A stretch of DNA of 39,289 nucleotides, taken from an uncultured Candidatus Saccharibacteria bacterium. GTDB taxonomy: Bacteria > Patescibacteriota > Minisyncoccia > Sungbacterales > SURF-37. Below the pieces are notes generated by a model. The model made no database searches. It saw only the letters and a program-made list of their open reading frames with translations, and was not told where the DNA came from. Shown one piece after another: positions 13,156-35,288 of the stretch (within the stretch, counting starts at the first letter, position 1; each line of letters starts with the position of its first letter). The position numbers were made by a program, and so were the translations under genes. The stretch lies in the NCBI GenBank assembly GCA_964365675.1, contig CAYIQX010000001.1, forward strand, positions 1-39,289, given 5' to 3'.

Positions 13156-13184
13156 TTGACATAGCGTTTCCAGCATGCTACACT
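13156..13184 (+). promoter_or_regulatory. Canonical sigma70 promoter of cassette 1
   Basis: TTGACA (13156-13161), 17 nt, TACACT (13179-13184). SD AAGGAGGTG lies at 13200-13208. Confidence 0.6.
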
Positions 13185-13212
13185 GACAGCACGCAAAGAA
13201 AGGAGGTGCGCG

Positions 13213-13464
13213 ATGTGCCGAGTTCAGCGAGTCCTGTGTGCGCTCCTCTTCACCACCCTCGTGTCTCTGGCCGCGGCTGGTTGCAGCGCCACCGACCTCT
13301 TCGTGTTCCCGCGTGTGCTGCAGAACGCGACCATGACGCATGAGGAGCGAGGGAAGCTCGAGGACGAGAAGTGGGAACGCGAGTACCGGCGCCTGGACGA
13401 GGCGCGGAAGGCCCAGGAGGCCGCCGCCACGAAGAAGGTCGCCCCTGCCCAGCCGGCGAAGTAG
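13213..13464 (+). CDS. Small lipoprotein (83 aa), compositional outlier
   Basis: Lipobox LAAAGC in MCRVQRVLCALLFTTLVSLAAAGCSA. Charged helical C-terminus. Strong SD. By hand count 71 of 83 codons end in G/C, and all Lys codons are AAG. Confidence 0.65.
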   Translation: MCRVQRVLCALLFTTLVSLAAAGCSATDLFVFPRVLQNATMTHEERGKLEDEKWEREYRRLDEARKAQEAAATKKVAPAQPAK

Positions 13465-13534
13465 CCCGGTCCCGATCAACCGCGAGCGCGGTGCGGTCGG
13501 GGCCTTTTTTAATATCACACCAGAAGGCGGAACA

Positions 13535-13858
13535 TCAATTACTCCTCTCTTCCGAAGAACCAAAATTAGTAGGATCCCGCTCACTGGTGAAACCGCGATA
13601 GCCGCTAGACGGCCCCTTTTCGAGCGTGACGCCAGTAAATTCCGGCTCGGCCTTTATGTTCACTTGCTTGGCCATTTCCGCTTCGAGTTTGCGCCCTACC
13701 TCCCGCCGCACGTTCCAGATGCCCCATAGGCCCAGTGCCAGGACGGCAACGCCGGTGGCGGTAGTCAGCGCAATGTCCGACTTCGATTCGTCTGGTCCGA
13801 AAAACGCGAGAACGAGGAGCCAAAGACCTATGGCGGATATTGCGATCTCCCGCTTCAT
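13535..13858 (-). CDS. Hypothetical two-TM small membrane protein (107 aa)
   Basis: AISAIGLWLLVLAFFG and VAVLALGLWGIW form the TM segments. The ATG lies 1 nt after the stop of the upstream gene (13860-13862). Confidence 0.5.
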   Translation of the reverse strand: MKREIAISAIGLWLLVLAFFGPDESKSDIALTTATGVAVLALGLWGIWNVRREVGRKLEAEMAKQVNIKAEPEFTGVTLEKGPSSGYRGFTSERDPTNFGSSEERSN

Positions 13859-13859
13859 T

Positions 13860-14771
13860 TCATTCGGGAATAATTTCTTTGATCTTCGGGATAGAAACGC
13901 AGGAAAGCGTAATGGTCTTCTTTGTTTCTCCTCCTTCGCCGGTACAGCTGAGCGTTATCGGCGTGTCGCCGCCCTGCTTGCATTCAATATCCACCGTGCC
14001 CGAGGCGTTGACGCCACCCACTCCTTGATCAAGCGCGCATGATGTTGCTCCGCTTGAGGTCCAGGAAAGTGTTACTGCTGTTCCTACTCCGACATTAAGC
14101 GTTCCACCGGCACTTGCGGTGTTTCCCCCGCTGGATGCATTAAAACTCGATGTTGGCGCTGCTGCGGCCGATCCACCTAACTGGCATGTGCCATCGGCCT
14201 TGCAGGTGTAGCCCGATGGGCAATACTTTTCTGCCTGCCCTACGGACGCACAGCAAACATTCCCAAAGGGCACACAGCTCTTACCACCGCATAGGTAGTA
14301 CCCCGCCTGGCATGCACCGACAGCACCCACCCCGCTCGAGGCGGCTGTGCCGCTACCTCCACCCGCTCGGCTACTTCCACCCCCGCCGCAACCGGTATTC
14401 GTCGGGGAATCCGTGCCGGCAAGGCACATTGCGGTCCCAATCGTATTCACCGTTGATGCAGCTAATCCCGTTACCCCTACCGCAAGCATAACCGGGAATA
14501 GGTTGCTCGCCGTGATAACTGCGGGCGCCCCAAGCACTCCTACCAAGCCGGCTGGGACCGCCGCCGCAACAACTACCGCAGCCATTACCGCGACGGCTGC
14601 GAAAGCAACTACCGCAACAGCGATGAGCGCAATACCGATACCGGTTATCGCTCCCTTTGCAAAAGCAAACGTCGGCGCCAGCCCCATAATGACCACCTGA
14701 ACCGAGATGGTCACAAAACGTCGCGCCGCAAGAGGCCTGTTAGCGATAGACCGGAGTGAAGCGAGGGACAT
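13860..14771 (-). CDS. Membrane protein with an Ala/Val-rich TM region, Gly linker, 10-Cys module and Ig-like C-terminal domain
   Basis: ACQAGYYLCGGKSCVPFGNVCCASVGQAEKYCPSGYTCKADGTCQ, followed by TLNVGVGTAVTLSWTSSGATSCALDQG...ITLSCTGEGG. The start is uncertain (14771, 14687 or 14852). Confidence 0.55.
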   Translation of the reverse strand: MSLASLRSIANRPLAARRFVTISVQVVIMGLAPTFAFAKGAITGIGIALIAVAVVAFAAVAVMAAVVVAAAVPAGLVGVLGAPAVITASNLFPVMLAVGVTGLAASTVNTIGTAMCLAGTDSPTNTGCGGGGSSRAGGGSGTAASSGVGAVGACQAGYYLCGGKSCVPFGNVCCASVGQAEKYCPSGYTCKADGTCQLGGSAAAAPTSSFNASSGGNTASAGGTLNVGVGTAVTLSWTSSGATSCALDQGVGGVNASGTVDIECKQGGDTPITLSCTGEGGETKKTITLSCVSIPKIKEIIPE

Positions 14772-15024
14772 AGCCGGATTGCGTGAGCCACTGCATAAGA
14801 AAGAAGGCGAAGATGTTCCACACGATCGTCCATCCGATGAGGAGCCACCCATAACGGCGATACTCCGGCTCCGTCAAAAAGGCGATTCCGAGTACCAACC
14901 CTCCAATCCCGGCAAGGGGCCCGGATACCAATATAGCGATCAAAAGCCACTTCTTTTTACGAAGGGCGATGAGGCCGGAAGATGGTGCTACGGGATAAGA
15001 AGGAGCTGCTGAAATCTGGTTCAT
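14740..15024 (-). CDS. Hypothetical small polytopic membrane protein (94 aa)
   Basis: WLLIAILVSGPLAGIGGLVLGIAFL and YGWLLIGWTIVWNIFAFFLMQW form the TM segments. First gene of the 15024-13535 minus-strand operon. Confidence 0.5.
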   Translation of the reverse strand: MNQISAAPSYPVAPSSGLIALRKKKWLLIAILVSGPLAGIGGLVLGIAFLTEPEYRRYGWLLIGWTIVWNIFAFFLMQWLTQSGYVPRFTPVYR

Positions 15025-15100
15025 ATTTAAATAGGAGCCTTAATTACAACAGCATAGACGCGAAGGGGACCGTAATCAAGCTATGTACGAGCCGCAATCC

Positions 15101-15128
15101 TTGACTTTTTGGCTGCAGAGACTATAAT
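15101..15128 (+). promoter_or_regulatory. Canonical sigma70 promoter of cassette 2
   Basis: TTGACT (15101-15106), 16 nt, TATAAT (15123-15128). SD GGAGGTG lies at 15159-15165. Confidence 0.6.
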
Positions 15129-15170
15129 ATAAAGCAGAAATAACGCACTTCATCTAATGGAGGTGAATCC

Positions 15171-15764
15171 ATGCGGTGGCGCATGCTTGCGCTCATCCCG
15201 ATCGCTCTTGCCGCCTCGGCCTGCGCCAGTATGGGCGCCAGGCCGAACCTCACCCCGAACTTCAACCCGGCCGCTACCCCGAAGAAGATCGCGGTGGAGC
15301 CGGCGGTGATCTACGAGGACTTCAGTTTCGGCCTCTTCGCGGCCAACAGCGAGAAGATCGGGCTTCTGCGCCACATTCCCGGCAAGCTTGCCCACCCCGA
15401 CCCAGAACTCTCAAGATTCTTCTCCGAGAGTTACGCTCAGTTCTTCTCCATGTTCGGGTTCGAGATCGTCTCACCCGACGATCCCGGAGCGCTCCGCTTG
15501 AAGATCAGCGTCGTACCTAAACTGGTTTTCCCCAGTCCTATGGCCGGAAGCGGACAGGCCGTCCTCCAAGTCTATCAGGACGACCGGGTGGTTGCCTACT
15601 ACGGCTTCGTCATCCTCCGGAAGGCCTGGGGACCCGGGTCGGGGCGACCGATCTGGGAGGATGATCACGCCAAGATCTCGCTCTTCCTGAGCGGGAAGCA
15701 CCTCGCTGAACTCCTCAGCGGCTCCGCCCATCCCGGCGCAGCCAGCCCCGCGGCCGACAAGTAA
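15171..15764 (+). CDS. Lipoprotein (197 aa), compositional outlier
   Basis: Lipobox LAASAC in MRWRMLALIPIALAASACAS. Strong SD. Lys codons are almost all AAG. No family recognised. Confidence 0.65.
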   Translation: MRWRMLALIPIALAASACASMGARPNLTPNFNPAATPKKIAVEPAVIYEDFSFGLFAANSEKIGLLRHIPGKLAHPDPELSRFFSESYAQFFSMFGFEIVSPDDPGALRLKISVVPKLVFPSPMAGSGQAVLQVYQDDRVVAYYGFVILRKAWGPGSGRPIWEDDHAKISLFLSGKHLAELLSGSAHPGAASPAADK

Positions 15765-15784
15765 CTGTCGGCCCCGGGGTTTTT
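15746..15784. terminator. Terminator hairpin enclosing the cassette 2 stop codon, shared with the convergent speE-like gene
   Basis: CCCCG-C-GGCCGACA [agtaac] TGTCGGCC-C-CGGGG, followed by T5 (15780-15784). Confidence 0.65.
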
Positions 15785-15785
15785 C

Positions 15786-17519
15786 TTATTTCGATCTGAA
15801 TAGAGCACCCAGCGGTCCAGCTCGAGTAATGACGTATTCGATATCGCTACGAACTTGCTCCACTGGCGCACGGAAGCGGGCGAAAATATTGCCTGTTGCC
15901 GTTTCCACTTCAATGAATTTTCCAACGAAAGAGCTGGGAATACCGAATGACCGAATGGGATGAAATAACGAATTGGGGACAACACCATCTTCCACGGCGG
16001 AATATAAATAAGGACCGGTGACCCCCGGGGTGGCCGTCGGCATCTCTCCGATTCTCTGATACAGCGTCGCAATTGTGATCGCCGAAGGCGAGGCGGCGAT
16101 GAACGCGATCTCAAACAAGCCGGGTATTCCGATGGTTGGGTCTGCTTCCGGTGGATGGAATGCAAGCGTTCTATAGCCGGCGCTTTTCAATGTCTCCTTG
16201 ACGATTGCGTGGAAACGCGATGGAAGCCCCCCGGTATGAACAACAATAATGCCGGACGAATCCAGATATTTATTGACGGCGAGATAGAATTCTTTTGAAT
16301 AGAGCCGGGTAAGCGCGGGATCTGTTGGGTCGGGAAAATCAACGAGTACTATGTTGAAGCGGGATTGAGCGCGCCGCTCCAAAAGCCATCGAAAGGCGTC
16401 ATCATGGACGATCGTAAGGCGCGGATTTGATAACGATCCCCTGTTCAACTCGCGTAACAATGGGTGCGTCATGGCCAGGTCCGTTACCATCTCATCAATA
16501 TCCACGAGCGTTATTTCCTCGACCGAAGGGTACTTCAGCACTTCCCGCGCGAGCAATCCGTCGCCGCCGCCGAGAATGAAAATGCGGCGGGCGCGCTCGC
16601 CCATGAATGACACCACCGGGTGCGCGAACGTCTCGTGGTAGCGTTTTTCTAACACACCCTCCTGAAATTGCAGCTCGCCATTCAAAAAAAGCGACAGTTT
16701 CCCATCGCGATTTTTTATCAGTTGAATGCGCTGGTAGGGAGATGTCCTGTCAAAAAGGACCTCGCTGCCGGCAAAAATCTGGCGAGTGAAAAACTCATCA
16801 AGCCGCGGCGCATAGATAAATCCGACGGCAAGAATCAGTATCCCCGCGAAAAGGAGTATCCTCCCGAAGCGCGAGAACGCGCCAAGCGGCCATGCCGGCG
16901 AGAACCCGGCGGCGAGGATAACGGCCGCCGCCAAATTTAAAAACCCCACGAGAAATCCGGTCTTGAGAAAGCCGAGCGCAGGCAGGAGTAGGAGGGGGAA
17001 AAGCACTGACGCTACGAGCGCCCCGGCATAATCCCAGAAGAATACCTTAGCCAGGGCATCTTTCAGCGTACGCGATGCCGCGGCGATACGGGTGAATATC
17101 GGCACCTCAATGCCCACCAAAACCCCGATGATAAAAATCGTGCCGAAACTGACGGCATGAAAAAGGATCTCGGTGAGGCCGGCTTGGAAAAGGAACATAA
17201 AGAGATTATTGAATACGTGGCCGCCAAGGTACCGGAATAGCCCGGCATAGAGGGCGAATATCAGCGGCGCGGCAAATCCACCGATAGTACCGAGGAGAAC
17301 TTCGATAGTGAGAAACCTTCGTAATAAGTTCTCCTCCCACTTTCCTGACCACCATGCGCCCGTACCGAGCGCAAAAAGGAAAATGCCGATGGTGAGGGAA
17401 AAGTACGTTACGGTCGCCCCCAAAAGATAGGAAAGTACGGCCGCGAGGATTAACTCGTACAGAATGGCTGCGCCGGCCATCACAAATACTGCGGCGAACA
17501 TTAAGCGGGACGAACTCAT
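15786..17519 (-). CDS. speE: Polyamine aminopropyltransferase (spermidine synthase-like) fused to an N-terminal polytopic membrane domain
   Basis: About 230 aa of TM helices, then ILGGGDGLLAREVLKYPSVEEITLVDIDEMV and VLVDFPDP (SpeE-type Rossmann motifs). An extra C-terminal ~120 aa is present. Confidence 0.75.
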   Translation of the reverse strand: MSSSRLMFAAVFVMAGAAILYELILAAVLSYLLGATVTYFSLTIGIFLFALGTGAWWSGKWEENLLRRFLTIEVLLGTIGGFAAPLIFALYAGLFRYLGGHVFNNLFMFLFQAGLTEILFHAVSFGTIFIIGVLVGIEVPIFTRIAAASRTLKDALAKVFFWDYAGALVASVLFPLLLLPALGFLKTGFLVGFLNLAAAVILAAGFSPAWPLGAFSRFGRILLFAGILILAVGFIYAPRLDEFFTRQIFAGSEVLFDRTSPYQRIQLIKNRDGKLSLFLNGELQFQEGVLEKRYHETFAHPVVSFMGERARRIFILGGGDGLLAREVLKYPSVEEITLVDIDEMVTDLAMTHPLLRELNRGSLSNPRLTIVHDDAFRWLLERRAQSRFNIVLVDFPDPTDPALTRLYSKEFYLAVNKYLDSSGIIVVHTGGLPSRFHAIVKETLKSAGYRTLAFHPPEADPTIGIPGLFEIAFIAASPSAITIATLYQRIGEMPTATPGVTGPYLYSAVEDGVVPNSLFHPIRSFGIPSSFVGKFIEVETATGNIFARFRAPVEQVRSDIEYVITRAGPLGALFRSK

Positions 17520-18994
17520 AAACGGAGAGTATTAAAAAATATCCCGTAGTGTCTCATCGGGTCGACGGAAACGGCATCCAGCCGGCCGTCGGGCGCAAGA
17601 ACTCCAGCTCGTTCGTCTTTTCCGGTGATCACGATCGGAACGTTCAGCCACACTGCCTCGGTGCGCCGTACGCCGTCCGTGAGCCGCAGGTACTGACCCC
17701 TGCCAAGAGCGACCCAGCTATTATTCCCGGTGTGCACGACAAATTGCGCGCCTTCTTGGACGGCGGCCCTGATATCCCACGGGTAGTGGACTTCAGCGCA
17801 GATAGGGGATGCGAACGAGAAACCGCCCGTATGAAGCAGGTGCGGTTCTCCCGCCGCATATTGGTATTGGGGATCGAAGATGGGACTTTCCGCGGATATC
17901 TCTGGTCGGATGCGGCCGGCCCAATTCCAATAGAACGGCCGCCAGCGGCCGAACGGCCAGTACTCGCCGCCAATGGCCAAACGCACCTTGTTGGCGCGGC
18001 CGGCAAGCGCCCCATCGCGGCTGAAAAGAAGCGTGGTGTTATAACGCTCCCCGCGCTGGATAGTGGTAAATGTCGCACTAACATCCACCGCTAAGTCAGC
18101 CGCAAGCCGGCGATAGGCCGCAATGAGCACCCCGCCGGATTCAATGCCGAACGCCGCCAACGCTTCCGGATCGGCATCATGCCATGACTCAAGATCGATC
18201 ATGTCTTCCGGCAACAGGACCAGATCAAGCGGCTGGCGGCGTAATTCATGCCGTAGCGGTTCCAGCATCGCGGCCAGGTGTTCGGCCGCGATCTGCCGCT
18301 CACTTGGCGAGAGAATATCATAGGGGAAATTAAGCGCGGAGTCGAACACGGCATCCGTCGAGACCGCGGCCACGCGGAGCTCACGGGGGCGACTCTGGTA
18401 CGCCGCGCCATTTTGGTGAAGCACCCAGCGGGATGCGCTAAAACCGGCGACCAGCAAGAGCACGATGGCGCCGATCCACAGATGTCGCTCCCGTTTGAAT
18501 AAAGTTATGATGCCCCCGGTAAGAACTGCGTTCACGACAGCTCCGAAGAGTGTGAGGCCGGCAATGCCGCCCCAACGCGCCAGCCCCAGGAAGGGTGATA
18601 CGGCAAGCGCGTTGCCCTGCGCCATGACATATACCGGCAGGAACGTGTAACGCGCTTCCAGGAGATCCCAGAACGTCCACAAAAATGGCAGCGAAATGGC
18701 CGCGGCTCTGGCTCCGACAAAGCGGCGAACGAGATGGAACGATACCGGCAAGCCGAGGAAAAGCAGAATGGAAGCCATCCAGCCGAAGGGCTCCGCGGCA
18801 AAATAGACCACCCCGGCCGCAAAGATGATCCGGAAAAGAGCAGTTCCGATGAGGAGGCGCACCAGCCGGCATTCACGCTGAAAAAATAAAAATAGGGGGA
18901 CCAGCCACGCGAGGGCGAGAACCCAAGCGTAGGGCAGTGCCGAAAACGCTCCAATACCGAGAAGCGCAGAAACAACGGGAAGTGCGAGGAACAT
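17516..18994 (-). CDS. lnt: Apolipoprotein N-acyltransferase
   Basis: N-terminal multi-TM region plus a CN-hydrolase domain with LVLLPEDM (Glu), NKVRLAIGGEYWPFG (Lys) and ICAEVHY (Cys). An ATGA overlap links it to the speE-like gene. Confidence 0.75.
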   Translation of the reverse strand: MFLALPVVSALLGIGAFSALPYAWVLALAWLVPLFLFFQRECRLVRLLIGTALFRIIFAAGVVYFAAEPFGWMASILLFLGLPVSFHLVRRFVGARAAAISLPFLWTFWDLLEARYTFLPVYVMAQGNALAVSPFLGLARWGGIAGLTLFGAVVNAVLTGGIITLFKRERHLWIGAIVLLLVAGFSASRWVLHQNGAAYQSRPRELRVAAVSTDAVFDSALNFPYDILSPSERQIAAEHLAAMLEPLRHELRRQPLDLVLLPEDMIDLESWHDADPEALAAFGIESGGVLIAAYRRLAADLAVDVSATFTTIQRGERYNTTLLFSRDGALAGRANKVRLAIGGEYWPFGRWRPFYWNWAGRIRPEISAESPIFDPQYQYAAGEPHLLHTGGFSFASPICAEVHYPWDIRAAVQEGAQFVVHTGNNSWVALGRGQYLRLTDGVRRTEAVWLNVPIVITGKDERAGVLAPDGRLDAVSVDPMRHYGIFFNTLRL

Positions 18995-21918: not shown

Positions 21919-22926
21919 ATGTTCATCAGGAAAATCGGCATTGATCTTGGAACGGCTAACACCCTGGTCTTTGTGCCGGGGAAAGGAGTGGTGGTCAATG
22001 AGCCGTCGGTGGTCGCGGTATCGGGGAATGATAACCGTATTTTGGCCGTGGGCAACGAGGCCCGCGACATGATCGGGCGCACGCCCGAAACCATCACCGC
22101 CTACCGCCCACTGAAGGACGGCGTCATTGCCGATTATCGTGTTACCGAGGCCATGCTCCGCTATTTTATAGACAAAACCGCGGGGCGCATCCGCCTCATA
22201 AAGCCGGAGGTCATGATATCGGTGCCGGCAAGCGTAACCTCGACCGAACGGAGGGCCGTCATCGAAGCGGCAACCAAGGCCGGGGCCAAAGCCGCCTATG
22301 TCGTCAAAGAACCGGTGCTGGCGGCCATCGGCGCCAACATTCCTATCAACGAGCCCGCCGGACACATGGTGGTAGACATCGGCGGCGGCACGTCCGATAT
22401 CGCCGTTATCTCGCTGGGCGGCATTGTGGCCTCAAACTCGGTCAAGGTGGCCGGGAACAAGCTTGACCAAGCTATTGCCGACTACATCAAAAAGCATTAC
22501 AACCTGGCCATTGGCGACCGCACCGCCGAGGATATCAAAATAAAGGTTGGGAGCGCGGTGCCGCTTGAGGATGACCTTTCGATGCAGATAAAGGGGCGGG
22601 ATCTCCTGACCGGCCTGCCGCGGAACATCGCTATTTATTCATCGGAAATAACCGAGGCCATCGCCGATCCCTTGCATGAGATCGTGCTCGCCATCAAGCG
22701 CGTGCTCTCCGATACGCCGCCTGAACTTGCCGCCGACATCATGGAGCGGGGGATCGTCATGTCCGGCGGCACGTCGCTCCTGCGGAACATTGACCAACTC
22801 GTCTTCCAGGAGACCGGCGTCCCGGCGCACATCGCTGATGAACCGCTGCTCTGCGTTGCCAAAGGCACCGGTATTGCGCTAGAGCACTTGGAGGTGTACA
22901 AGAGAAGCATAATGGCGAAACGATAG
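21919..22926 (+). CDS. mreB: Rod shape-determining protein MreB
   Basis: IGIDLGTANTLVFV, VVDIGGGTSDIAVISLGGIV and IVMSGGTSLLRNIDQ. Confidence 0.95.
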   Translation: MFIRKIGIDLGTANTLVFVPGKGVVVNEPSVVAVSGNDNRILAVGNEARDMIGRTPETITAYRPLKDGVIADYRVTEAMLRYFIDKTAGRIRLIKPEVMISVPASVTSTERRAVIEAATKAGAKAAYVVKEPVLAAIGANIPINEPAGHMVVDIGGGTSDIAVISLGGIVASNSVKVAGNKLDQAIADYIKKHYNLAIGDRTAEDIKIKVGSAVPLEDDLSMQIKGRDLLTGLPRNIAIYSSEITEAIADPLHEIVLAIKRVLSDTPPELAADIMERGIVMSGGTSLLRNIDQLVFQETGVPAHIADEPLLCVAKGTGIALEHLEVYKRSIMAKR

Positions 22927-22987
22927 CGGTAGTCCAATGTTAAGCACTTCAAAGCGATCGCTGAAAAATATTTAACATAGATACGTG

Positions 22988-23093
22988 AAGGAGGTTGCAC
23001 TTGAGCACCTCGACGTGTATAAGAGAAGCACAATGGCGAAAAGGAGGTTGCACTTGAGCACCTCGACGTGTATAAGAGAAGCACAATGGCGAA
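22988..23093 (+). repeat. Tandem 53-nt repeat (2 units), pseudo-copies of the mreB 3' end
   Basis: AAGGAGGTTGCACTTGAGCACCTCGACGTGTATAAGAGAAGCACAATGGCGAA occurs twice; the two units are identical over 52 nt. It is homologous to mreB 22872-22920 (..ALEHLEVYKRSIMAK). Confidence 0.9.
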
Positions 23094-23174
23094 GCGGTAA
23101 CATACTCTTGCGTATCTTTTAGGCATCTGATACAAATTAGCGTAGTTTTCCAAGCGTAAACCTAGGGGGAGCCG

Positions 23175-23840: not shown

Positions 23841-23858
23841 CACCCCTTGCCCGCTTTT
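23828..23858 (+). terminator. Terminator hairpin enclosing the cassette 3 stop codon
   Basis: GCGGGCA (23828-23834) pairs with TGCCCGC (23848-23854), followed by TTTTCTTT. Confidence 0.5.
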
Positions 23859-23878
23859 CTTTGGGAAACGCGGAAAGC

Positions 23879-23922
23879 CATGTTAATAATTTACGAACGG
23901 TCGTCAGGAAATTATTAACATG
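23879..23922. repeat. Inverted-repeat family P2, copy 1
   Basis: CATGTTAATAATTT [16-nt loop containing CGGTCG] AAATTATTAACATG. A second copy lies at 30889-30934. Confidence 0.85.
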
Positions 23923-24036
23923 GATGGCATGGCCAGCATTTGATCAGATTCGATCTTGCCCGTTTTTCTTTTTTCTGATATTCTCATAAGGTCTTACTGC
24001 TAACTTTTACTTTCTCATCTCGAGCTTCTCGCTCAT

Positions 24037-24321: not shown

Positions 24322-24408
24322 CGACGCCAATATGCGAATGGCATGCGAATTTTGCGAATCCGTTTCTATTAGCGTCATTCGCGTGAAATTAGCATATTAG
24401 CGTCGCCT
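24320..24408. repeat. Repeat family R2 (TGCGAAT hairpin), copy B
   Basis: Outer inverted repeat GCGACGCCAATATGC (24321-24335) / GCATATTAGCGTCGC (24392-24406). TGCGAAT occurs three times (24333, 24344, 24353) and ATTCGCG at 24377. Confidence 0.8.
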
Positions 24409-26038: not shown

Positions 26039-26656
26039 TTAGTATCCTCTCTCCAGGACTGCCGTGTCGGCATCGTTGAACTGGTTTTTATCAGTGGATG
26101 GATTCCAGGAAAATACGCTCACCGTTACCGGGTTCTCGCCGGTCTTATTTAATTCTCCAAACCCGAGCGTGAAGCGGCGTCCCTCACCGGGCCCGAGCGG
26201 CAGCTGGACGGGCGACGTGTAACGACCGTCAAGCGTAGGAAGATTTGCCGTGAACTGCCAGCGATCGGATGCTAATGTACCGACATTCACCACGGTGAAT
26301 ACGATAACCGGGCGCTCACCGGCCTGAACGGAATTGGCATGGAGAAAACCGGCGCCACCGCCGGTAGAGATACCGGTATCGATAACGCGGACCGAAAGGT
26401 CGGCCATCGGCTCCGGCGCTGAAGTCATGACCGGCGCGGGCGACCTTGGGCTGGGGAAAATCCGCAGCGGTGTTGGGGGAACGGGCGGAACTGTCACCTC
26501 GGGGACGGTAATGCCGGCGGCAAGGGACTCGGCTGTTGCGCCTTCAGTACGATAACGGGCAAGTTTTACCATACCAATAACTCCGGCGGCCACGAGCGAA
26601 AGCACACCAATGACCGCAAACACCGCCATGACTATTTCGGAACGAGAATACTGCAT
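26039..26656 (-). CDS. Hypothetical N-terminally anchored protein with a beta-sandwich-like (CARDB-like?) C-terminal domain
   Basis: TM segment IVMAVFAVIGVLSLVAAGVIGMV, a Pro-rich linker, then VIVFTVVNVGTLASDRWQFTANLP...GEGRRFTLGF. Confidence 0.55.
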   Translation of the reverse strand: MQYSRSEIVMAVFAVIGVLSLVAAGVIGMVKLARYRTEGATAESLAAGITVPEVTVPPVPPTPLRIFPSPRSPAPVMTSAPEPMADLSVRVIDTGISTGGGAGFLHANSVQAGERPVIVFTVVNVGTLASDRWQFTANLPTLDGRYTSPVQLPLGPGEGRRFTLGFGELNKTGENPVTVSVFSWNPSTDKNQFNDADTAVLERGY

Positions 26657-26797
26657 GGTGCCAATATTATGATATTTAAGTATAAAAAGTCAATACTATC
26701 GAGGCAACCCCGCTCGCTTCTTGCTGGGAAAATTATTCTATGATAAGGAGTAAGAGCGTGTACGCCGCAGGAAAATTGGCAACGAAAGGAGGTCCGA

Positions 26798-27516: not shown

Positions 27517-27547
27517 GGCGGGAGGCCGAGGCCTCCCGCCATTTTTT
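27517..27547 (+). terminator. Intrinsic terminator of cassette 4
   Basis: GGCGGGAGGC [cgag] GCCTCCCGCC, followed by ATTTTTT. Confidence 0.8.
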
Positions 27548-27559: not shown

Positions 27560-28393
27560 ATGCCAGCAAATTTTGCAAGAATTACCGTCATAAGCGCCGT
27601 CATCGCTGTTCTGCCGCTTTTGGCTCTGGCCGATGACGATTTTGGAGGCGTTTTCTCTGGCAGTGATTTCGGCGGCATCTCCGGAAGTGATGCCGGCGGT
27701 GTATTCGAATTCCCATCCTTTGACGATGGCGGAATTGATATAGGTGGGTTCTTCGGCAGTGATGCCGGCGGGGTTTCCATCACGGATGATAGTATTGTTT
27801 TTGGTGGCGATGCGGGTGACGTAGAGACAAGTCCTGACGTCGGCGACGTTCTCTTCGGGGATTTCGGTGGGTTTTCCGTTTTCGATGAAAGCACTGATGT
27901 CGGCGGCATTGCCGCCTTTGGCGGAGTATCGGGATTTGATGGTACTTCGATATCTTCCACCTCGTTCGGAACATTTTTCGGATCTCCGGCAGAATTTACC
28001 GGCGGCGCCGAACCCACCGATAGCGGAACCGTTGTCATTGCCGAGAGCCCGGTCGAGCCGCCGCCATTTGCCGGTGAGCCGTTTTTTGCCGCCGCCGAGC
28101 CCGCACCCTTCGTCTTCGCCGGCGCCGAGCCCCTTGGTATTGTCGCCGTCTCTCACGCCATTCAACCGGCGGTCTCATCCCGTTCCACGGTCACGCTCTC
28201 GCAAATACCCTATACCGGCATCGGGAGCGTATTCACGACCGTACTCTTCATTCTTGCCGTTTTTGTCCTAAGCGGCATTGTGGCATATTTCCTCACGAGA
28301 GCCATGCATAGGCGTCGGGAGCGCACCAAACGCCTCACTCCCGTGAGGCCAACGGCTCCAAAGGCCATCCGACCGGTTTTTGCCGGATGGTAG
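27560..28393 (+). CDS. Secreted Asp/Gly/Phe-rich repeat protein with a C-terminal IPYTG-TM-basic tail
   Basis: Signal peptide ITVISAVIAVLPLLALA. Degenerate (S)GSD(A/F)GG(V/I) repeats. C-terminus LSQIPYTGIGSVFTTVLFILAVFVLSGIVAYFLTRAMHRRRER... Confidence 0.6.
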   Translation: MPANFARITVISAVIAVLPLLALADDDFGGVFSGSDFGGISGSDAGGVFEFPSFDDGGIDIGGFFGSDAGGVSITDDSIVFGGDAGDVETSPDVGDVLFGDFGGFSVFDESTDVGGIAAFGGVSGFDGTSISSTSFGTFFGSPAEFTGGAEPTDSGTVVIAESPVEPPPFAGEPFFAAAEPAPFVFAGAEPLGIVAVSHAIQPAVSSRSTVTLSQIPYTGIGSVFTTVLFILAVFVLSGIVAYFLTRAMHRRRERTKRLTPVRPTAPKAIRPVFAGW

Positions 28394-30888: not shown

Positions 30889-30934
30889 CCATGTTAACAA
30901 TTTTTTGGCGGTCGCTTTAAAATTATTAACATGG
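30889..30934. repeat. Inverted-repeat family P2, copy 2
   Basis: CCATGTTAACAATTTT [14-nt loop containing CGGTCG] AAAATTATTAACATGG, with one arm mismatch. Confidence 0.85.
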
Positions 30935-30969
30935 ATTTTCCGCGGCATATCGAAAAACCCCTTGCGCCC

Positions 30970-30998
30970 TTGACAACAAACCATACTTCGTGATACTA
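30970..30998 (+). promoter_or_regulatory. Canonical sigma70 promoter of cassette 5
   Basis: TTGACA (30970-30975), 17 nt ending in TG, ATACTA (30993-30998). Confidence 0.55.
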
Positions 30999-31045
30999 CT
31001 TTCCACGGCGATCCAGTACGACTCAATGAGATGAGGAGGGATCAC

Positions 31046-31483: not shown

Positions 31484-31501
31484 AAATAGGTGTAGATCTT
31501 G

Positions 31502-31531
31502 CAGCTCCGCAGATTCCGGCGGAGCTGTTTT
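31502..31531. terminator. Intrinsic terminator of cassette 5, between convergent genes
   Basis: CAGCTCCGC (31502-31510) pairs with GCGGAGCTG (31519-31527), followed by TTTT. Confidence 0.7.
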
Positions 31532-32469: not shown

Positions 32470-32479
32470 AGATTCGCGA

Positions 32480-33415
32480 TTACCCCAAAATAGTTCCGAC
32501 GATCTCCCGATGGCCGCGGAGAAAATCCTCCCCGGGCATGGATTTCCCTCCTTCCGGCTTTAACTGCTGAATGGCCATGGTTCCGCGTCCCGCCGCAACA
32601 AGAAATTCGTCATTCTCGTCGAACACCTCGCCGGGTCGTCCCTCGCTTTTTACCCCTTCCCCTTTCACCCGCGCCCTCTCTATTGCCAATCGTATGGCAT
32701 TGCCGTTCCTCTGCCAAAACATATATGCACCGGGCCAGGGCTGGAATGCACGAACCTGCCGCTCGATATCGCGAGCCGGCATTGCCCAGTCAATGTGCCC
32801 GTCCTCCTTTTTCAGGATGCGGCTATAGGTGGCCGCCGCATGATCTTGCGGTCGGGGAGTTATTTTCCCTGTGGCCCAAGACCTAAGAGTTTCGAGGAAT
32901 AATTCCACGCCAAGGTCAGTAAGCGCATCCGAAAGTTCAAGTGCAGTCCAGGCCCGGTCGCTAAGCGGGAACTCCCGGAAAGCAACAATGGGGCCATGGT
33001 CCATTTCGCTATCCATCTGAATGATGGTAACGCCCGACAGGGCATCCCCAGCGAGAATGGCCGATTGAATCGGGGTAGTACCCCGCCACCGGGGCAGGAG
33101 GGACGGATGAATATTTAAGGAGCCGAACTCTGGGACCGCAAGGACATCCGGAGGCAAAATTTTTCCGTAGGCCACCACCAGTGAAAGTTTGATATCATGT
33201 GCCTTCAATTCTTCCGCGAATCCACCCAACGTTACCGGCTGCAGTACCGGGATACCAAATTCAAGCGCGGCCAACTTCACCGCACCCGTCCCGTGGCCAT
33301 CAGCCGCAGTAACCGCAAGTACGGGCTTTAGGCCACCTATGATGAGCCGCCGCAAAAATCGCGCGTTCTGGAGGGAACCGACAAATTCCGATGTTCCAAA
33401 AAAAGCGATCCGCAT
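32480..33415 (-). CDS. fmt: Methionyl-tRNA formyltransferase
   Basis: MRIAFFGTSEF and SLNIHPSLLPRWRGTTPIQSAIL. Sits downstream of def. Confidence 0.92.
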   Translation of the reverse strand: MRIAFFGTSEFVGSLQNARFLRRLIIGGLKPVLAVTAADGHGTGAVKLAALEFGIPVLQPVTLGGFAEELKAHDIKLSLVVAYGKILPPDVLAVPEFGSLNIHPSLLPRWRGTTPIQSAILAGDALSGVTIIQMDSEMDHGPIVAFREFPLSDRAWTALELSDALTDLGVELFLETLRSWATGKITPRPQDHAAATYSRILKKEDGHIDWAMPARDIERQVRAFQPWPGAYMFWQRNGNAIRLAIERARVKGEGVKSEGRPGEVFDENDEFLVAAGRGTMAIQQLKPEGGKSMPGEDFLRGHREIVGTILG

Positions 33416-33458
33416 GGCTTTACAAATTACGAATACTTAAAATTTCCGAATATCACAT

Positions 33459-33488
33459 CTATATCAATAGTATATACTATTGATATAG
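33459..33488. repeat. AT-rich palindrome family P1, copy 3 (perfect 30-mer)
   Basis: CTATATCAATAGTAT/ATACTATTGATATAG. It is flanked about 25-45 nt away by an outer inverted repeat, TTACGAAT (33427-33434) / ATTCGTAA (33536-33543). Confidence 0.9.
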
Positions 33489-33550
33489 GAGGCGGGACGG
33501 TGCGCATATCCGATCCGTATATTTGTGTCCGCTCGTAATTCGTAAAATGG

Positions 33551-34093
33551 TCAAACTGCCTTGGCATCAATCGGGAAAAGATGTTTAGTCCGGTCGGCTA
33601 TGAGCACGCCCTCAAGGTGATCCGTTTCATGCTGAATGACGCGGGCAAAAAACTTTGTAAAGCCCCGCGCGTGCTTTTTGGCATGTTCGTCGTACCACTC
33701 CAGATATACTTTATCGGCGCGCGATATCTCCCCGAACTTCCCGGGGATGGAAAGGCATCCCTCGGCCATTGTTCTTTTTTCCCGTGACTTCTTTTTCAAG
33801 ACCGGATTGATAAACACATTGTACTCCCATTTCTTTGGTACTTTTGCCGTGTTTGAAGCGTTCGCGGTCTCATTGTCAACCGCCCTTGCCTCCTCCGAAA
33901 CCAAAAAAATTTTGAGACCAACCCCGATTTGTGGCGCGGCAAGACCAACGCCATCTGCGGCGGCGCGAAGGGTATCCCTCATATCGGCAATAACCTGCCG
34001 GATGCGCGCTCCGGAAATATCCGAAAGCGGCACGCTTGCCGTTGGCGCGCGGAGCAAATTATGGGGGAGTTTTACGACGGGTTTTACGGACAT
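33551..34093 (-). CDS. def: Peptide deformylase
   Basis: From ATG 34093: GVGLAAPQIG, EGCLSIPG and QHETDHLEG (all three PDF motifs). The ORF-track start at 34342 adds an implausible extension. Confidence 0.92.
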   Translation of the reverse strand: MSVKPVVKLPHNLLRAPTASVPLSDISGARIRQVIADMRDTLRAAADGVGLAAPQIGVGLKIFLVSEEARAVDNETANASNTAKVPKKWEYNVFINPVLKKKSREKRTMAEGCLSIPGKFGEISRADKVYLEWYDEHAKKHARGFTKFFARVIQHETDHLEGVLIADRTKHLFPIDAKAV

Positions 34094-34382
34094 CGCGTTT
34101 TCTTTTACTCCTGCGGGCGCGGTGCCGGCGCAGTTCCCGGAGCCAGGATCGCCGCTTCGGGAGACCTTTGAGCGCGCCGAAAAAATACCTGCCGCGGCTC
34201 CTTGGTTCGAGGCCAGGCTTGGCAAGAACATATTTGGCCAGCGCCCGGAGATCGGGCTCCTCATACATCTTGGCCACGCCGAGGTAGCTTGCGAAGCGCT
34301 TGGGTTCAAGCATCGTCCGCGAGAGGTCGTCGGCGAGCACATGCTCCCTGGAATGAAGGTGCTTGTCGGGCGTCAGGCGCAT
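34059..34382 (-). CDS. Hypothetical ORF overlapping the def start; only the first ~95 aa could be real
   Basis: MRLTPDKHLHSREHVLADDLSRTMLEPKRFASYLGVAKMYEEPDLRALAKYVLAKPGLEP looks protein-like. The Arg-rich tail is an out-of-frame reading of def. No SD or homology recognised. Confidence 0.25.
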   Translation of the reverse strand: MRLTPDKHLHSREHVLADDLSRTMLEPKRFASYLGVAKMYEEPDLRALAKYVLAKPGLEPRSRGRYFFGALKGLPKRRSWLRELRRHRARRSKRKRDVRKTRRKTPP

Positions 34383-34411
34383 TTGACAAATCTGATATTA
34401 TTTGATACATA
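34383..34411 (+). promoter_or_regulatory. Sigma70-like promoter of cassette 6
   Basis: TTGACA (34383-34388), 17 nt, TACATA (34406-34411). SD AAAGGAGG lies at 34434-34441. Confidence 0.5.
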
Positions 34412-34449
34412 TTAGCAGGATTGCACCCCAAAGGAAAGGAGGCGGGACC

Positions 34450-35259
34450 ATGGAAATCGTCCTGCCGTACTTCACGCCCCGAAAATGGGGCGTCCCGTTC
34501 CCGTTCTTCTCTACGCTCGCCGGCGCCAAGCAGGCGGGATTCGACGGCGTCGAGATCCACCTCGTCGGGCTGTCACACGCTGAGGCGCGCCAAGCGGCCG
34601 CCCGTGCGCGCCGCCTCGGGCTCACCGTGTCGGTACATCAGGCCTGGTCCGTGGAAGAGGACGGTGTCCGGCACATCTGGAACGCCGCCTTCGACCTTCT
34701 CGGCTGGCTCCCCCAGGGCCGGGACTACCCGCTCGCCGGGCATATCCCGGCCGGCATCAGCGCGCCGGCGGTGATCTACGCCGATCGGATGCACGAGCCG
34801 ACGGACGCCGATACCTGGGTCCAGACCTGCTGTCATAGGGATGAGCGCGGGCGCTTCCTCGTCCCGTTCGAGCGCTTCCTCCAGGATATCCTGAACGAAC
34901 GCACCCCCATCGTCTTCGATGTCCAGCATGTCCTCGAATACGCCTGCGGCGTCGAGGGCGTTGCCAGCCTGCCGCGCCGGCCTCAAGAGCTCCGGGACCG
35001 GCTCTTCGCCGCCTGGAAGATCATGCGTCCGCTGGTGAAAGAGATCCAACTAGCCGATACTGACCCCTCCCTCGGGAGTTCATGGGGCCGGAACCTGCCG
35101 CTCAACAAGGGCATCCTGCCCCTCCGGGAATTCTGCCGGATGGTGAAGGAATCCGGCTGGGACGGCCGCGTGGTCCCCGAGGTCCAGCCAATGTTCTACA
35201 AGTTCCGCAGGCACAGCTGGGCCGAGCTCCGGCGTCAGACCGCCAAGCTCTTCGCCTGA
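34450..35259 (+). CDS. Xylose-isomerase-like TIM-barrel (sugar phosphate isomerase/epimerase family) protein, compositional outlier
   Basis: From ATG 34450: MEIVLPYFTP...AKQAGFDGVEIHL...LGLTVSVHQAW... is the typical AP_endonuc_2/TIM-barrel opening. Strong SD. High GC3. Confidence 0.55.
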   Translation: MEIVLPYFTPRKWGVPFPFFSTLAGAKQAGFDGVEIHLVGLSHAEARQAAARARRLGLTVSVHQAWSVEEDGVRHIWNAAFDLLGWLPQGRDYPLAGHIPAGISAPAVIYADRMHEPTDADTWVQTCCHRDERGRFLVPFERFLQDILNERTPIVFDVQHVLEYACGVEGVASLPRRPQELRDRLFAAWKIMRPLVKEIQLADTDPSLGSSWGRNLPLNKGILPLREFCRMVKESGWDGRVVPEVQPMFYKFRRHSWAELRRQTAKLFA

Positions 35260-35260
35260 C

Positions 35261-35288
35261 CGGGGGATGTGTCGCATCCTCCGTTTTT
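35261..35288 (+). terminator. Intrinsic terminator of cassette 6
   Basis: CGGGGGATG (35261-35269) pairs with CATCCTCCG (35275-35283), including one G-U pair, followed by T5. Confidence 0.65.

Follow-up and report, generated by a model that had tools for sequence, protein, structure and literature searches.

Strong Shine-Dalgarno sequences confined to six single-gene units, and conserved in relatives for five of them, in a segment of a groundwater Paceibacteria genome

In bacterial genomes that mix leaderless and SD-led genes, a Shine-Dalgarno sequence (SD) typically precedes the operon-internal genes and the majority of the leadered ones. Genomes of GeneMarkS-2 group C, Mycobacterium and Deinococcus have a -10 box adjoining many first-gene starts, and their leadered genes use the SD (PMC6028130, PMC3160421). 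In the Bacteroidia the anti-SD is present and is sequestered by bS21, bS18 and bS6, and in Flavobacterium johnsoniae the strong-SD gene is rpsU itself, which forms an autoregulatory loop (PMC7797042, PMC9976891, PMC13000453). Tsurumaki et al. (2022, RNA 28:1041, PMC9297842) put the Parcubacteria without an anti-SD at about half, and in their passages on rRNA and ribosomal proteins they mention no SD-bearing gene class.

The window, the whole 39,289-nt stretch of DNA analysed here, is part of a groundwater Patescibacteria genome of the class Paceibacteria ("Parcubacteria"); its habitat is Hainich groundwater, identical contigs are present in Hainich assemblies, and its nearest genomes are Patescibacteria/Paceibacteria MAGs. 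The 16S rRNA gene of this genome lies outside the window. As in group C, Mycobacterium and Deinococcus, -10 boxes adjoin many first-gene starts, but, unlike in mixed leaderless genomes, operon-internal genes are SD-less and the SD is found only in six monocistronic accessory genes. As in the Bacteroidia, the bulk of the genes are SD-less with AT-rich upstream regions, and a few have an unusually strong and conserved SD in an all-or-none fashion; these few, unlike rpsU, encode accessory products (lipoproteins, an enzyme and small proteins), and positions -1 to -5 upstream are rich in C where those of Bacteroidia are rich in A. The Parcubacteria in which anti-SD loss is described belong to the same superphylum; that loss is directly visible in the sequences of three related loci, and it would account for the SD-less core genes of this genome and its relatives. 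The six also resemble integron cassettes and small flexible genomic islets, being single-ORF units at fixed sites whose presence varies between relatives, but, unlike integron cassettes, they have no integrase, attC-type site or array, each has its own terminator and four a recognisable promoter, and they are dispersed among core operons.

A sequence-only reading had picked out these six genes (C1 to C6, Table 1) as self-contained single-gene units between core operons. They are indeed self-contained and occupy intergenic slots between conserved core genes, with the coordinates and features it gave, and the pattern exceeds what chance would produce. The lipoboxes agree with its three lipoproteins, and the match of C6 to PF01261, which passes the Pfam cut-off, is in keeping with its TIM barrel, but neither Pfam nor a fold search reproduced its Myb/SANT-like label for C5. 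C3 shows conserved Cys and His columns, a sign of a gene under constraint. Independent assemblies repeat the junctions around C1, C2 and C5 (those of C2 are identical in four independent contigs), so the contig is not chimeric at those points.

Table 1. Positions of the six single-gene units, their parts and adjacent features in the window
Feature	Position	Strand	Description
C1	13156–13510	+	promoter, SD, CDS, terminator
C1 promoter	13156–13184		TTGACA (13156–13161), 17 nt, TG-TACACT; 10/12 consensus
C1 SD	13200–13208		AAGGAGGTG
C1 CDS	13213–13464		83-aa lipoprotein, lipobox AAGC
C1 terminator	13468–13504		hairpin, then U6
C2	15101–15790	+	
C2 promoter	15101–15128		TTGACT-16-TATAAT; 11/12 consensus
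C2 SD	15159–15166		GGAGGTGA
C2 CDS	15171–15764		197-aa lipoprotein, lipobox ASAC
C2 terminator	15744–15781		hairpin, then U-run
C3	23165–23862	+	
C3 SD-like	23165–23171		GGGGGAG, ending 3 nt 5' of ATG
C3 CDS	23175–23840		221-aa helical protein, conserved CxCHM motif
C3 terminator	23828–23854		hairpin, then CUUUUCUUU
Scar 5' of C3	22935–23093	+	palindrome copy and mreB 3'-end pseudo-copies
Palindrome in scar	22935–22982		degenerate copy of 46–48-nt palindrome
mreB 3'-end pseudo-copies	22988–23040, 23041–23093		two in tandem, 53 nt
mreB end	22867–22919		
C4	26786–27548	+	
C4 SD	26786–26793		AAGGAGGT
C4 CDS	26798–27511		237-aa lipoprotein, lipobox LTGC
C4 terminator	27517–27540		then U-run
hyp26039	26039–26656	−	divergent from C4; leaderless-type promoter
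C5	30970–31540	+	leader ~42 nt
C5 promoter	30970–30997		TTGACA-16-GATACT; 10/12 consensus
C5 SD	31034–31041		GAGGAGGG
C5 CDS	31046–31483		145-aa basic protein; N-terminal three-helix region and long coiled coil
C5 terminator	31501–31528		then U-run
C6	34383–35294	+	
C6 promoter element	34383		TTGACA, weak -10 box; overlaps start of small divergent ORF
C6 SD	34436–34444		AAGGAGGCG
C6 CDS	34450–35259		269 aa, xylose-isomerase-like TIM barrel, PF01261
C6 terminator	35261–35283		then U-run
Variable region	10151–18993		rpsI to PEGA gene, 8.8 kb; holds C1 and C2
hyp10535	10535–11419		
Three small membrane genes	13535–15024	−	
Motif-scan sites	13200, 15159, 26786, 31034, 34436		

SD strength was scored as the duplex energy of positions -22 to -1 against the canonical 16S tail, CACCUCCUUA (the canonical 3' end is ...GGAUCACCUCCUUA). 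The values for C1 to C6 are -12.9, -10.6, -9.3, -12.3, -12.8 and -11.6, respectively, and those of the 32 other genes scored alongside are all at least -6.9, the majority being above -2. The two sets do not overlap (Mann-Whitney p = 6e-5, 6 vs 32 genes), which bears out the earlier claim of a strong SD in all six and of no SD in the core genes checked; the three small membrane genes, scored later, are at least -6.6. A motif scan of the whole window for intergenic GGAGG or AAGGAGG followed by 4–8 nt, an ATG and a long ORF gave five sites only (Table 1), and strong-SD genes make up about 15% of the window's genes.

The regions upstream of 59 non-SD genes are 55% AT and 19% G, and their enriched k-mers are -10-like. 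Such boxes lie 3–13 nt before the starts of alaS, pilM, rpsI, speE, the PEGA gene, murA, hyp26039 and ctpB, whereas those of the cassettes are 21–56 nt upstream, and these consensus matches suggest that operon-leading core mRNAs are leaderless or near-leaderless. Operon-internal genes (0/13 with an SD) are preceded by AT-rich, G-poor spacers. Across other Paceibacteria loci (1,697 genes), starts have fewer 4-mer SD cores than internal starts do (3.3% vs 5.0%), and strong GGAGG at starts is enriched only 1.8-fold, against about 10-fold in the clade of our genome; the clade's apparent SD frequency is inflated, since cassette homologues led to several of the relatives. The distribution is bimodal: SDs are very strong or missing, with no continuum of weak ones.

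Promoters and terminators had been taken as further foreign signals. The promoters of C1, C2 and C5 are near consensus and a promoter scan gave nothing convincing for C3 and C4, much as had been said, but the TTGACA before C6 is missing a good -10 box. All six cassettes end in a GC hairpin and U-run; the C1 terminator, previously thought marginal, is a good one (-28.3 kcal/mol, z = -3.8), and the other five are confirmed. These signals do not distinguish the cassettes, since near-consensus promoters and terminators of the same type serve the core genes PEGA, hyp26039 and ctpB. The SD, and in part GC3, are the only features that set the six apart. GC3 is 0.86, 0.81, 0.64, 0.72, 0.80 and 0.85 in C1 to C6 and 0.653 ± 0.057 in the remaining genes (p = 0.0014); the enrichment claimed for all six thus holds for C1, C2, C5 and C6 (2.5–3.7 standard deviations over core), mildly for C4 and not for C3. 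The claimed preference for AAG lysine codons is clear (AAG/AAA 38/9 vs 218/257 in other genes, p = 5e-6). GC3 of C6 is not raised in L087 (L-numbers denote the related CPR loci compared), and several relatives have a GC3 above that of our genome.

All homologues found for C1, C3, C4, C5 and C6 belong to related Paceibacteria/CPR genomes, where they occupy the same intergenic slots; a search for non-CPR homologues found none. Each keeps a strong SD with a conserved (A)AGGAGG, and the consensus over about 20 orthologues, (A)AAGGAGG(T) at a spacing of 3–9 nt, is the full complement of the canonical tail; neighbouring genes in the relatives are SD-less except for a GGAGG at SD spacing before fmt in L087. 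In L180, our genome's closest relative, the C1 orthologue has the same position and the SD CAAGGAGGTGCGTG, and the energies of the C1 and C4 orthologues are -12.7 and -11.6, against at least -4.1 for 13 other genes. The C3 orthologues P0018 and P0019 (L175 and L178) occupy the same mreB-rpmF slot with SDs AAGGAGGG and GGGAGGGG. C4 has SD-led orthologues in the same place in L087 (GGGAGG), L095 and L105 (both GGAGG) and L180, and C6 has them in L087 (syntenic, AAGGAGG), L088 and L090 (both AAAGGAG). The only C5 homologue, in L091, is 81% identical and shares its promoter, leader, SD and terminator with ours. The SD is kept at dS of about 1 or more although adjacent leader sequence has diverged, and its retention in orthologues that hold the same slots indicates that it is under selection; dN/dS values of 0.17–0.52 show purifying selection on the cassette genes. 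C2 has no detectable homologue among 5.8 billion proteins searched; it is an ORFan and carries no information on a donor.

Relative to L180, dS is 1.06 for C1 and 1.09 for C4 and 0.6–1.2 for their flanks, so these two were inherited together with the core, still with their SD and raised GC3. C5 has a much lower dS (0.39) than the genes on either side (1.56 and 2.35), and it is absent from L087 and L180. L091 has no C6 at the corresponding site, and C3 is missing from L180, L179, L015 and L095, while in L007 a different cassette occupies the C3 slot. The slots therefore vary between related genomes, and cassettes are still being gained and lost. Scars at the junctions in our genome are limited to a resident palindrome and to pseudo-copies derived from the end of the adjacent core gene, which points to homology-assisted recombination rather than site-specific capture; the mreB pseudo-copies are 77% identical to the real mreB end, and L007 has a similar pseudo-copy immediately 5' of a different SD-led ORF. 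The variable region around C1 and C2 also contains SD-less accessory genes (hyp10535, HTTM, hyp12392, the three small membrane genes, a speE-like gene and lnt) and is a mosaic: the HTTM-hyp12392-C1 block is present in L180 and the membrane-genes-speE-lnt block in L179, and both are missing from L008, L012, L015 and L019. Within it, hyp10535 (GAGGA, ΔG -6.2) is a possible weak seventh member.

The sequence-only reading had explained the six as separate imports from a distant SD-using, higher-GC donor, perhaps the host of an episymbiont, that retain the donor's signals and codon usage. Repeated single-gene acquisition as such agrees with the varying slots, the low dS of C5 and the mreB scars. 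The distant donor is very improbable: a raised GC3 and AAG bias in four or five cassettes, an otherwise SD-free lineage whose relatives can be without an anti-SD, the ORFan C2, the single C5 homologue and the slots empty in some relatives would all suit it, but, C2 aside, all homologues found belong to related CPR and are syntenic, the SD outlasts its adjoining leader, and C1 and C4 have the dS of their core flanks. GC3 is raised in both lineages despite synonymous turnover, unlike in an unameliorated relic, promoters and terminators are of the core-gene type, and, as that reading had itself noted, the window has no integrase or transposase. Phage, defence and NCBIfam profile searches gave no matches, and no viral relatives were found for the four cassettes queried (C2, C3, C4 and C5). 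It is also unlikely that the six are ordinary genes which have an SD because their leaders are longer, with GC3 set by amino-acid composition, expression level or short-gene sampling. The more distant cassette -10 boxes, the normal or near-normal GC3 of C3 and C4 and the weak GC3 shift of SD-motif genes in other Paceibacteria loci (mean z = 0.69) fit such a view, but the 13 operon-internal genes need internal initiation too and have no SD, weak SDs form no continuum, each gene keeps its SD from one genome to the next, and GC3 in four cassettes lies far over that of the core.

Rather unlikely is a reading in which the lineage has no canonical anti-SD and the GGAGG elements are not classical SDs but are read by something else. 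Candidates would be an rRNA tail that is altered or extended, a protein (ribosomal or regulatory), structure in the leader, or a translation apparatus of foreign origin. The 16S 3' ends of three more distant Paceibacteria loci (GGATCATTTAAG.., GGATCATTATCT.. and GGAATTCATCCTTTT) have no CCTCC within 340 nt (3/3 loci), in line with the loss in about half of Parcubacteria reported in PMC9297842; GGAGG nevertheless stands at SD spacing before four genes of these loci, against an expectation of about one, and the bimodal distribution and the depletion of weak SD cores would be natural. Against this, full complementarity to the canonical tail at the proper spacing is hard to explain without that tail, the three loci are distant (NusB 49–53% identical) and fall outside the clade of our genome in a rough NJ tree, and about half of Parcubacteria retain the anti-SD.

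We favour, with a probability of about 0.6, the interpretation that the cassettes are a clade-conserved, native minority of SD-dependent, leadered, monocistronic accessory genes that are exchanged among relatives, in a genome that is otherwise SD-independent; the evidence for a native class covers C1, C3, C4, C5 and C6, C2 being an ORFan. Bulk translation would start without an SD, and each cassette would be a monocistronic unit of sigma-70 promoter (recognisable in four of six), very strong SD, ORF and intrinsic terminator, with a predicted leader of 20–45 nt where the promoter is recognisable and (A)AGGAGG(T) 3–8 nt before the start codon. The SD would most simply be read by a retained canonical anti-SD. 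The predicted products appear to be accessory: three are lipoproteins, and the others are a TIM-barrel enzyme, a helical Cys/His protein and a coiled-coil protein that is small and basic. Related Paceibacteria would gain, lose and occasionally swap the units through recombination that is anchored either in the core genes alongside or in resident palindromes, and the higher GC3 may reflect exchange among relatives together with some gene-specific bias. Since strong SDs are conserved in this clade, it should either have kept the anti-SD or have another reader for them.

The SD split in the window is complete. Duplex energies with the canonical 16S tail were computed for the 22 nt preceding each start in 38 curated gene models, with starts set by homology. 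They range from -9.3 to -12.9 for the six cassette genes (C1 to C6), and the 32 other genes all score at least -6.9, mostly above -2 (Mann-Whitney p = 6e-5); three small membrane genes added to the models score at least -6.6. Each of the six carries a purine-rich element complementary to the canonical tail at SD spacing (3-8 nt), and a plain motif scan of the window for intergenic GGAGG followed by 4-8 nt, a start and a long ORF returned no further site. The dichotomy drawn in the sequence-only reading, strong SDs on these six genes and none on the core, is thus real and quantitatively strong.

A GC hairpin followed by a U-run lies 3' of all six genes, in agreement with the terminators proposed for them. 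The promoters proposed for most of them fared less evenly; those of C1, C2 and C5 are near-consensus sigma-70 sites, C6 combines TTGACA with a poor -10 box, and none was recognisable for C3 or C4. Such strong signals had been regarded as peculiar to the cassettes, but they also serve the core genes PEGA (TTGACA-17-AATAAT), hyp26039 (TTGACT-16-CATAAT; hypothetical genes are named by their window start coordinate) and ctpB (TTGCCT-17-TATAAT), and it is the SD alone, plus GC3 in part, that distinguishes the six genes. The higher GC3 claimed for the group was found in C1, C2, C5 and C6 and mildly in C4, and C3 is not raised (values in the table, against 0.653 +/- 0.057; p = 0.0014). The claimed lysine preference is clear, with 38 AAG to 9 AAA codons in the six and 218 to 257 in the other genes (p = 5e-6).

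The Gly/Pro/Ser-rich secreted protein gene hyp10535 lies in the richest 1-kb GC stretch outside C6 (63% GC) with a promoter-like site at 10483. Its GAGGA resembles an SD but is weak (dG -6.2), which makes it a possible weaker seventh member of the SD-led class. Overlapping the SD in the leader of C5 is a tiny upstream ORF, ATG-AGA-TGA. This leader is ~85% identical overall to its counterpart in a related genome (locus L091), well above the usual conservation of intergenic DNA here, and may be regulatory. A simple gene caller based on codon usage failed to find C3, hyp10535 and m303 and called rpmF wrongly; C3 was therefore validated through the alignment of its conserved family and its dN/dS.

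Coordinates, expression signals and distribution of the features discussed (window positions unless a locus, L-number, of a related Paceibacteria genome is named)
Feature	Position	Details	Present	Absent
C1	13213-13464, +	SD AAGGAGGTG; GC3 0.86		
C2	15171-15764, +	SD GGAGGTGA; GC3 0.81		
C3	23175-23840, +	SD GGGGGAG; GC3 0.64	window, L175, L178	L179, L180, L015, L095
C4	26798-27511, +	SD AAGGAGGT; GC3 0.72		
C5	31046-31483, +	SD GAGGAGGG; GC3 0.80	window, L091	L087, L180
C6	34450-35259, +	SD AAGGAGGCG; GC3 0.85	window, L087	L091
Upstream ORF in C5 leader	31031-31045			
hyp10535	10535-11419			
hyp27560	27560-28393	24-nt periodic repeat at 27635-27798		
NusB-NUDIX fusion	24413-25306	297 aa		
rpsI-PEGA region	10151-18993	8.8 kb, mosaic of two blocks		both blocks: L008, L012, L015, L019
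mreB 3'-end pseudo-copies	22988-23093	two tandem, 53 nt, before C3; real end 22867-22926		
mreB-end pseudo-copy	L007:1566-1620	one, directly before a different SD-led ORF		
AT-rich palindrome, 46-48 nt	22935-22982 (degenerate), 23878-23925, 30889-30936	CCATGTTAA(N)...TTAACATGG; flanks C3, precedes C5	empty slots: L087 (about 7060-7105), L180 (diverged, about 5625-5660)	
Palindrome CTATATCAATGGTATATACCATTGATATAG, 30 nt, near-perfect	2517-2546, 10420-10451, 33456-33488	before pilM, after rpsI, before fmt	also upstream of fmt in L091	
66-nt repeat	5783-5848, 9100-9165	inverted partners 5696-5718, 9009-9026		
Second repeat, ~66 nt	6391-6450, 24341-24406	ATTCGC/TTAGC-rich; immediately upstream of rpsK, nusB		
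16S 3' end	L101:13626-13700	GGATCATTTAAG..; in context ...GTGGATCATTTAAG		
16S 3' end	L109:17651-17720	GGATCATTATCT..; in context ...GTGGATCATTATCT		
16S 3' end	L129, about 18530-18600, minus strand	GGAATTCATCCTTTT; in context ...GTGGAATTCATCCTTTT		

Three of the six proteins were correctly named as lipoproteins, each having an N-terminal signal peptide with a hydrophobic stretch that ends in a lipobox (pattern [LVI][ASTVI][GAS]C): AAGC at residue 21 in C1, ASAC at residue 15 in C2 and LTGC at residue 19 in C4; an lnt-like gene is also present in the window. The predicted TIM barrel is that of C6, which scores 54.3 bits against the xylose-isomerase-like family PF01261 (gathering cut-off 31.1), and all 14 of its homologues match the same family. 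The Myb/SANT label given to C5, on the other hand, was not reproduced: its resemblance is at the motif level only (YGDEEDERLRRLV...W), C5 has no Pfam, NCBIfam or PHROG match, and its model (pLDDT 69), with three short N-terminal helices, had no significant match in a PDB fold search, nor did the C3 model (pLDDT 72). A phage or defence-island origin was considered and rejected, as PHROGs, NCBIfam and PADLOC gave no match to the six proteins or to the L007 cassette, and scans of viral contigs with C2, C3, C4 and C5 found no relatives. The secreted or anchored protein hyp27560, which adjoins C4, contains D/G/F-rich repeat units of the type (S/G)GSD(A/F)GG(V/I)F and is highly variable in length among relatives (277, 294 and 342 aa).

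The window is the whole contig (39,289 bases, ~57% GC), and pieces identical to it are present in several independent groundwater assemblies from the Hainich aquifer, indicating that the C1, C2 and C5 junctions did not arise by chimeric assembly. An Rfam scan of the window found no RNA family, no rRNA and no riboswitch within leaders, and no tRNA was found in it. A scan of GTDB genomes anchored on MreB returned only Patescibacteria/Paceibacteria ("Parcubacteria") MAGs. The closest readable relatives are L179 and L087 (two parts of a single contig of GCA_030697585.1; MreB 96.7% identical) and L180 (GCA_964364625.1; 94.6%), together with L175, L007 and L008, and all share the core order pilM-infA-rpmJ-rpsM-rpsK-rpsD-rpoA-rplQ-rplM-rpsI ... 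PEGA-murA-mreB-rpmF-nusB-rnc ... smc ... fmt-def ... murC-ctpB-rplI. The fusion of NusB and NUDIX hydrolase domains seen in the window is widespread among the related loci, and its L087 orthologue matches PF01029 and PF00293.

Every homologue of C1, C3, C4, C5 and C6 that was found lies in a related CPR contig, and their SDs are conserved beyond the surrounding leaders. The C1 orthologue in L180, a 91-aa lipoprotein gene that adjoins the orthologue of hyp12392, has a nearly identical SD and spacer (CAAGGAGGTGCGTG-ATG in the window, AAAGGAGGTGCGCG-ATG in L180). C3 has only two homologues in 1.8 billion representative proteins, both in the mreB-rpmF slot, with SDs AAGGAGGG (L175) and GGGAGGGG (L178). 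C4 orthologues in L087, L095, L105 and L180 follow rnc and the divergently oriented hyp26039, each with a GGAGG-type SD. The one C5 homologue (81% identical) is flanked by smc and hyp31549 in L091; it shares the TTGACA-16-GATACT promoter and has an GGGGAGGG SD and a terminator. C6 has homologues at 42-50% identity, except one at 36%, and one is labelled Liptonbacteria; the L087 orthologue, exactly between murC and the small ORF that precedes def, has AAGGAGG before its ATG, and those in L088 and L090 have AAAGGAG. In all, a GGAGG-type motif at SD spacing is kept in two genomes for C1, three for C3, five for C4, two for C5 and four for C6. Core neighbours in all these relatives lack an SD with the single exception of fmt in L087 (GGAGG at SD spacing); in L180, scores are -12.7 and -11.6 for the two cassette orthologues and at least -4.1 for the 13 other genes. 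C2 is an ORFan, with no homologue in a search of 5.8 billion proteins and no relatives in a metagenome scan anchored on its speE-like neighbour. Its similarity to an opposite-strand lipoprotein in the same slot of L179 is marginal (E = 0.026), and homology is not claimed.

The sequence-only reading had these genes acquired singly from an SD-using, higher-GC donor, possibly a host organism. For five of the six families this is contradicted by homologues found only in related CPR genomes in conserved synteny, which is the very finding that reading had named as its refutation. Divergence points the same way. Relative to L180, dS is 1.06 for C1 and 1.09 for C4, within the 0.6-1.2 of the flanking core genes, and dN/dS is 0.52 and 0.26, respectively; against L087, where all comparisons are saturated, it is 0.39 for C4 and 0.36 for C6, and against L175 it is 0.17 for C3. 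With dN/dS below 1, C1, C3, C4 and C6 are by these rates functional genes, and dS equal to that of the flanks shows C1 and C4 to have been inherited together with the core; protein evolution is faster in these genes than in the core. The SD and raised GC3 persist across ~1 synonymous substitution per site, a poor fit to an unameliorated foreign signature.

Inheritance with the core does not mean that the genes have stayed in place. The empty sites in related genomes that single-gene insertion should leave were found in part: presence is patchy and apparent mreB-end scars exist, but most families occur in at least one close relative. The C3 slot of L007 holds an unrelated 121-aa ORF (AAGAGGAGGT + 7 nt + ATG) with its own terminator, that of L175 has in addition an SD-led Usp gene, and that of L178 a TrpR-like gene whose SD-like GGAG is weak. 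The C2 slot of L179 is occupied by a 214-aa SD-led lipoprotein gene (the opposite-strand one). Between the window and L091, dS is 0.39 for C5 and 1.56 and 2.35 for its neighbours smc and hyp31549, so C5 was exchanged after the flanks had diverged; values of 0.97 for fmt, 0.69 for def and 0.58 for murC (32480-36646) suggest that recombination tracts between related genomes extend beyond the cassettes. The larger rpsI-PEGA region is likewise composite: L180 (1-1617) has an HTTM-hyp12392-C1 block directly adjoining PEGA, L179 (1306-7054) has three membrane genes, a lipoprotein gene, a speE-like gene and lnt adjoining rpsI, and the window holds both.

Between mreB and C3 lie pseudo-copies of the mreB end that include codons for ...ALEHLDVYKRSTMAKR*, and L007 has a similar copy in the corresponding position. 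Such copies before cassettes are expected if a segment of a relative, "mreB end + cassette", was added by recombination, and they are likely scars of an insertion of this kind. The AT-rich palindrome is present in empty slots as well (the smc-hyp31549 spacer of L087 and the mreB-rpmF slot of L180), which marks it, on this distribution, as a resident slot element and not a cassette end; possible roles are as a terminator, a site for protein binding or a hotspot of recombination. One arm, ATGTTAA, weakly resembles the XerD arm of dif. An integron/attC identity was rejected, since the arms misfit attC core sites, empty slots have the palindrome too and there is no integrase. A Pfam scan of ~20 window proteins found no integrase or transposase, as had been noted before.

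The bulk of the genes appear to start in another way. Upstream of 59 SD-less genes of the window, L087 and L179 the DNA is AT-rich (55% versus 42%) and G-poor (19% versus 29%), and the enriched k-mers are -10-like. In at least nine operon-leading core genes a -10-like hexamer ends 3-13 nt before the start, compared with 21-56 nt in the cassettes, and none of 13 operon-internal genes has an SD. The -10 position before these core genes would suit mRNAs that are leaderless or nearly so. In other Paceibacteria loci (1,697 genes), gene starts are depleted of 4-mer SD cores (3.3%, versus 5.0% at internal in-frame starts), and strong GGAGG at SD spacing is enriched 1.8-fold, versus ~10-fold in the clade of the window and its close relatives. 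GGAGG with fixed spacing was used because a permissive threshold (dG <= -9 anywhere from -22 to -1) gave 138 matches, versus 159 expected from internal starts, in 1,805 genes of 112 loci.

Several repeats lie at these starts. The two copies of the 66-nt repeat (91% identical), each with a complementary arm ~60-70 nt upstream, end precisely at the start codons of rpmJ (5843-5956, missing from the ORF list) and rplM (9160), and look like a common structured leader or promoter of two ribosomal-protein transcription units. A second repeat precedes two further genes, and similar G-poor tracts rich in TTCGC/CTCGC/TTAAC lie before rpoA, rpmF, mreB and rpsI. The CTATATCAATGGTATATACCATTGATATAG palindrome may be an operator or an element of a bidirectional promoter.

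What reads the six SDs depends on the 16S 3' tail. An exact alaS look-up, aimed at extending the contig towards its 16S gene, found no record. The canonical anti-SD-bearing end is ...GGAUCACCUCCUUA. CCUCC is present in none of the three 16S ends read in fetched Paceibacteria loci (L101, L109, L129), and no CCTCC occurs within 340 nt downstream of them, so the anti-SD is absent there; this matches Tsurumaki et al. 2022 (PMC9297842), who report an anti-SD in only 48% of Parcubacteria and losses overlapping the uL1-lacking group. If the window clade had also lost it, selection would be keeping a small AAGGAGG-led regulon read by a non-canonical receptor. Candidates for it would be a different rRNA tail, a protein or subset of ribosomes devoted to this task, or the host cell's own translation machinery, since these bacteria live as episymbionts. 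The uniform absence in these three relatives favours this idea, as do, suggestively only, the four GGAGG motifs that stand at SD spacing before genes of the three loci together (~1 expected). These loci are distant from the window, however, with NusB 49-53% identical and a position outside its clade in a rough NusB+Rnc neighbour-joining tree, whose resolution was too poor for a parsimony reading of the anti-SD state. The 16S 3' ends of L101 and L109 are ~4-7 kb downstream of nusB-rnc, where the window and its close relatives have no rRNA. Moreover, the ~20 orthologous elements have the consensus (A)AAGGAGG(T), which is fully complementary to CACCUCCUUA and canonically spaced, and since it is under selection the anti-SD has probably been retained in the window clade; its loss, with a substitute receptor, is unlikely.

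The closest functional analogue is found in the Bacteroidia, whose ribosomes are SD-blind because bS21, bS18 and bS6 sequester the anti-SD, and where ribosomes without bS21 read a rare strong SD, that of rpsU (PMC7797042, PMC9976891, PMC13000453). The all-or-none SD pattern, with bulk genes lacking SDs and SD cores depleted at starts, is common to both, whereas the gene set and upstream context differ; the window contains no 16S gene and no rpsU, rpsR or rpsF. Genomes that mix leaderless and SD-led genes, Mycobacterium among them (GeneMarkS-2 group C; PMC6028130), have a -10 box at the start. This feature recurs in the window. Internal genes of genomes of the Mycobacterium type do use SDs, unlike the operon-internal genes here. 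Integron cassettes resemble C1 to C6 solely in single-gene modularity, and this identity was rejected because four of the six have their own recognisable promoter, their 3' ends are plain terminators, the genes are dispersed and no integrase is present. The best reading is that the six genes belong to a native class of accessory genes, autonomous and SD-led, which are clade-conserved and recombinationally mobile within a Parcubacteria genome that is otherwise SD-independent, and no description of such a class in CPR bacteria was found in the literature searched.

This has practical consequences. Gene callers with a single RBS model would place wrong starts in one gene class or the other, and screens for horizontal transfer based on composition or "foreign signals" would falsely flag a native SD-led class; the promoter-SD-terminator units are ready expression modules for emerging CPR genetics. 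The slot architecture, a resident palindrome with pseudo-copies of core gene ends, hints at integrase-free movement of accessory genes between tiny genomes. For start-codon choice by CPR/Patescibacteria ribosomes, a nearly SD-free clade with a few conserved maximal SDs gives a concrete handle: if the anti-SD is lost, SD-like elements function without one, and if it is retained, its selective use is Bacteroidia-like, and envelope and accessory genes may then be translated in a specialised or conditional way.
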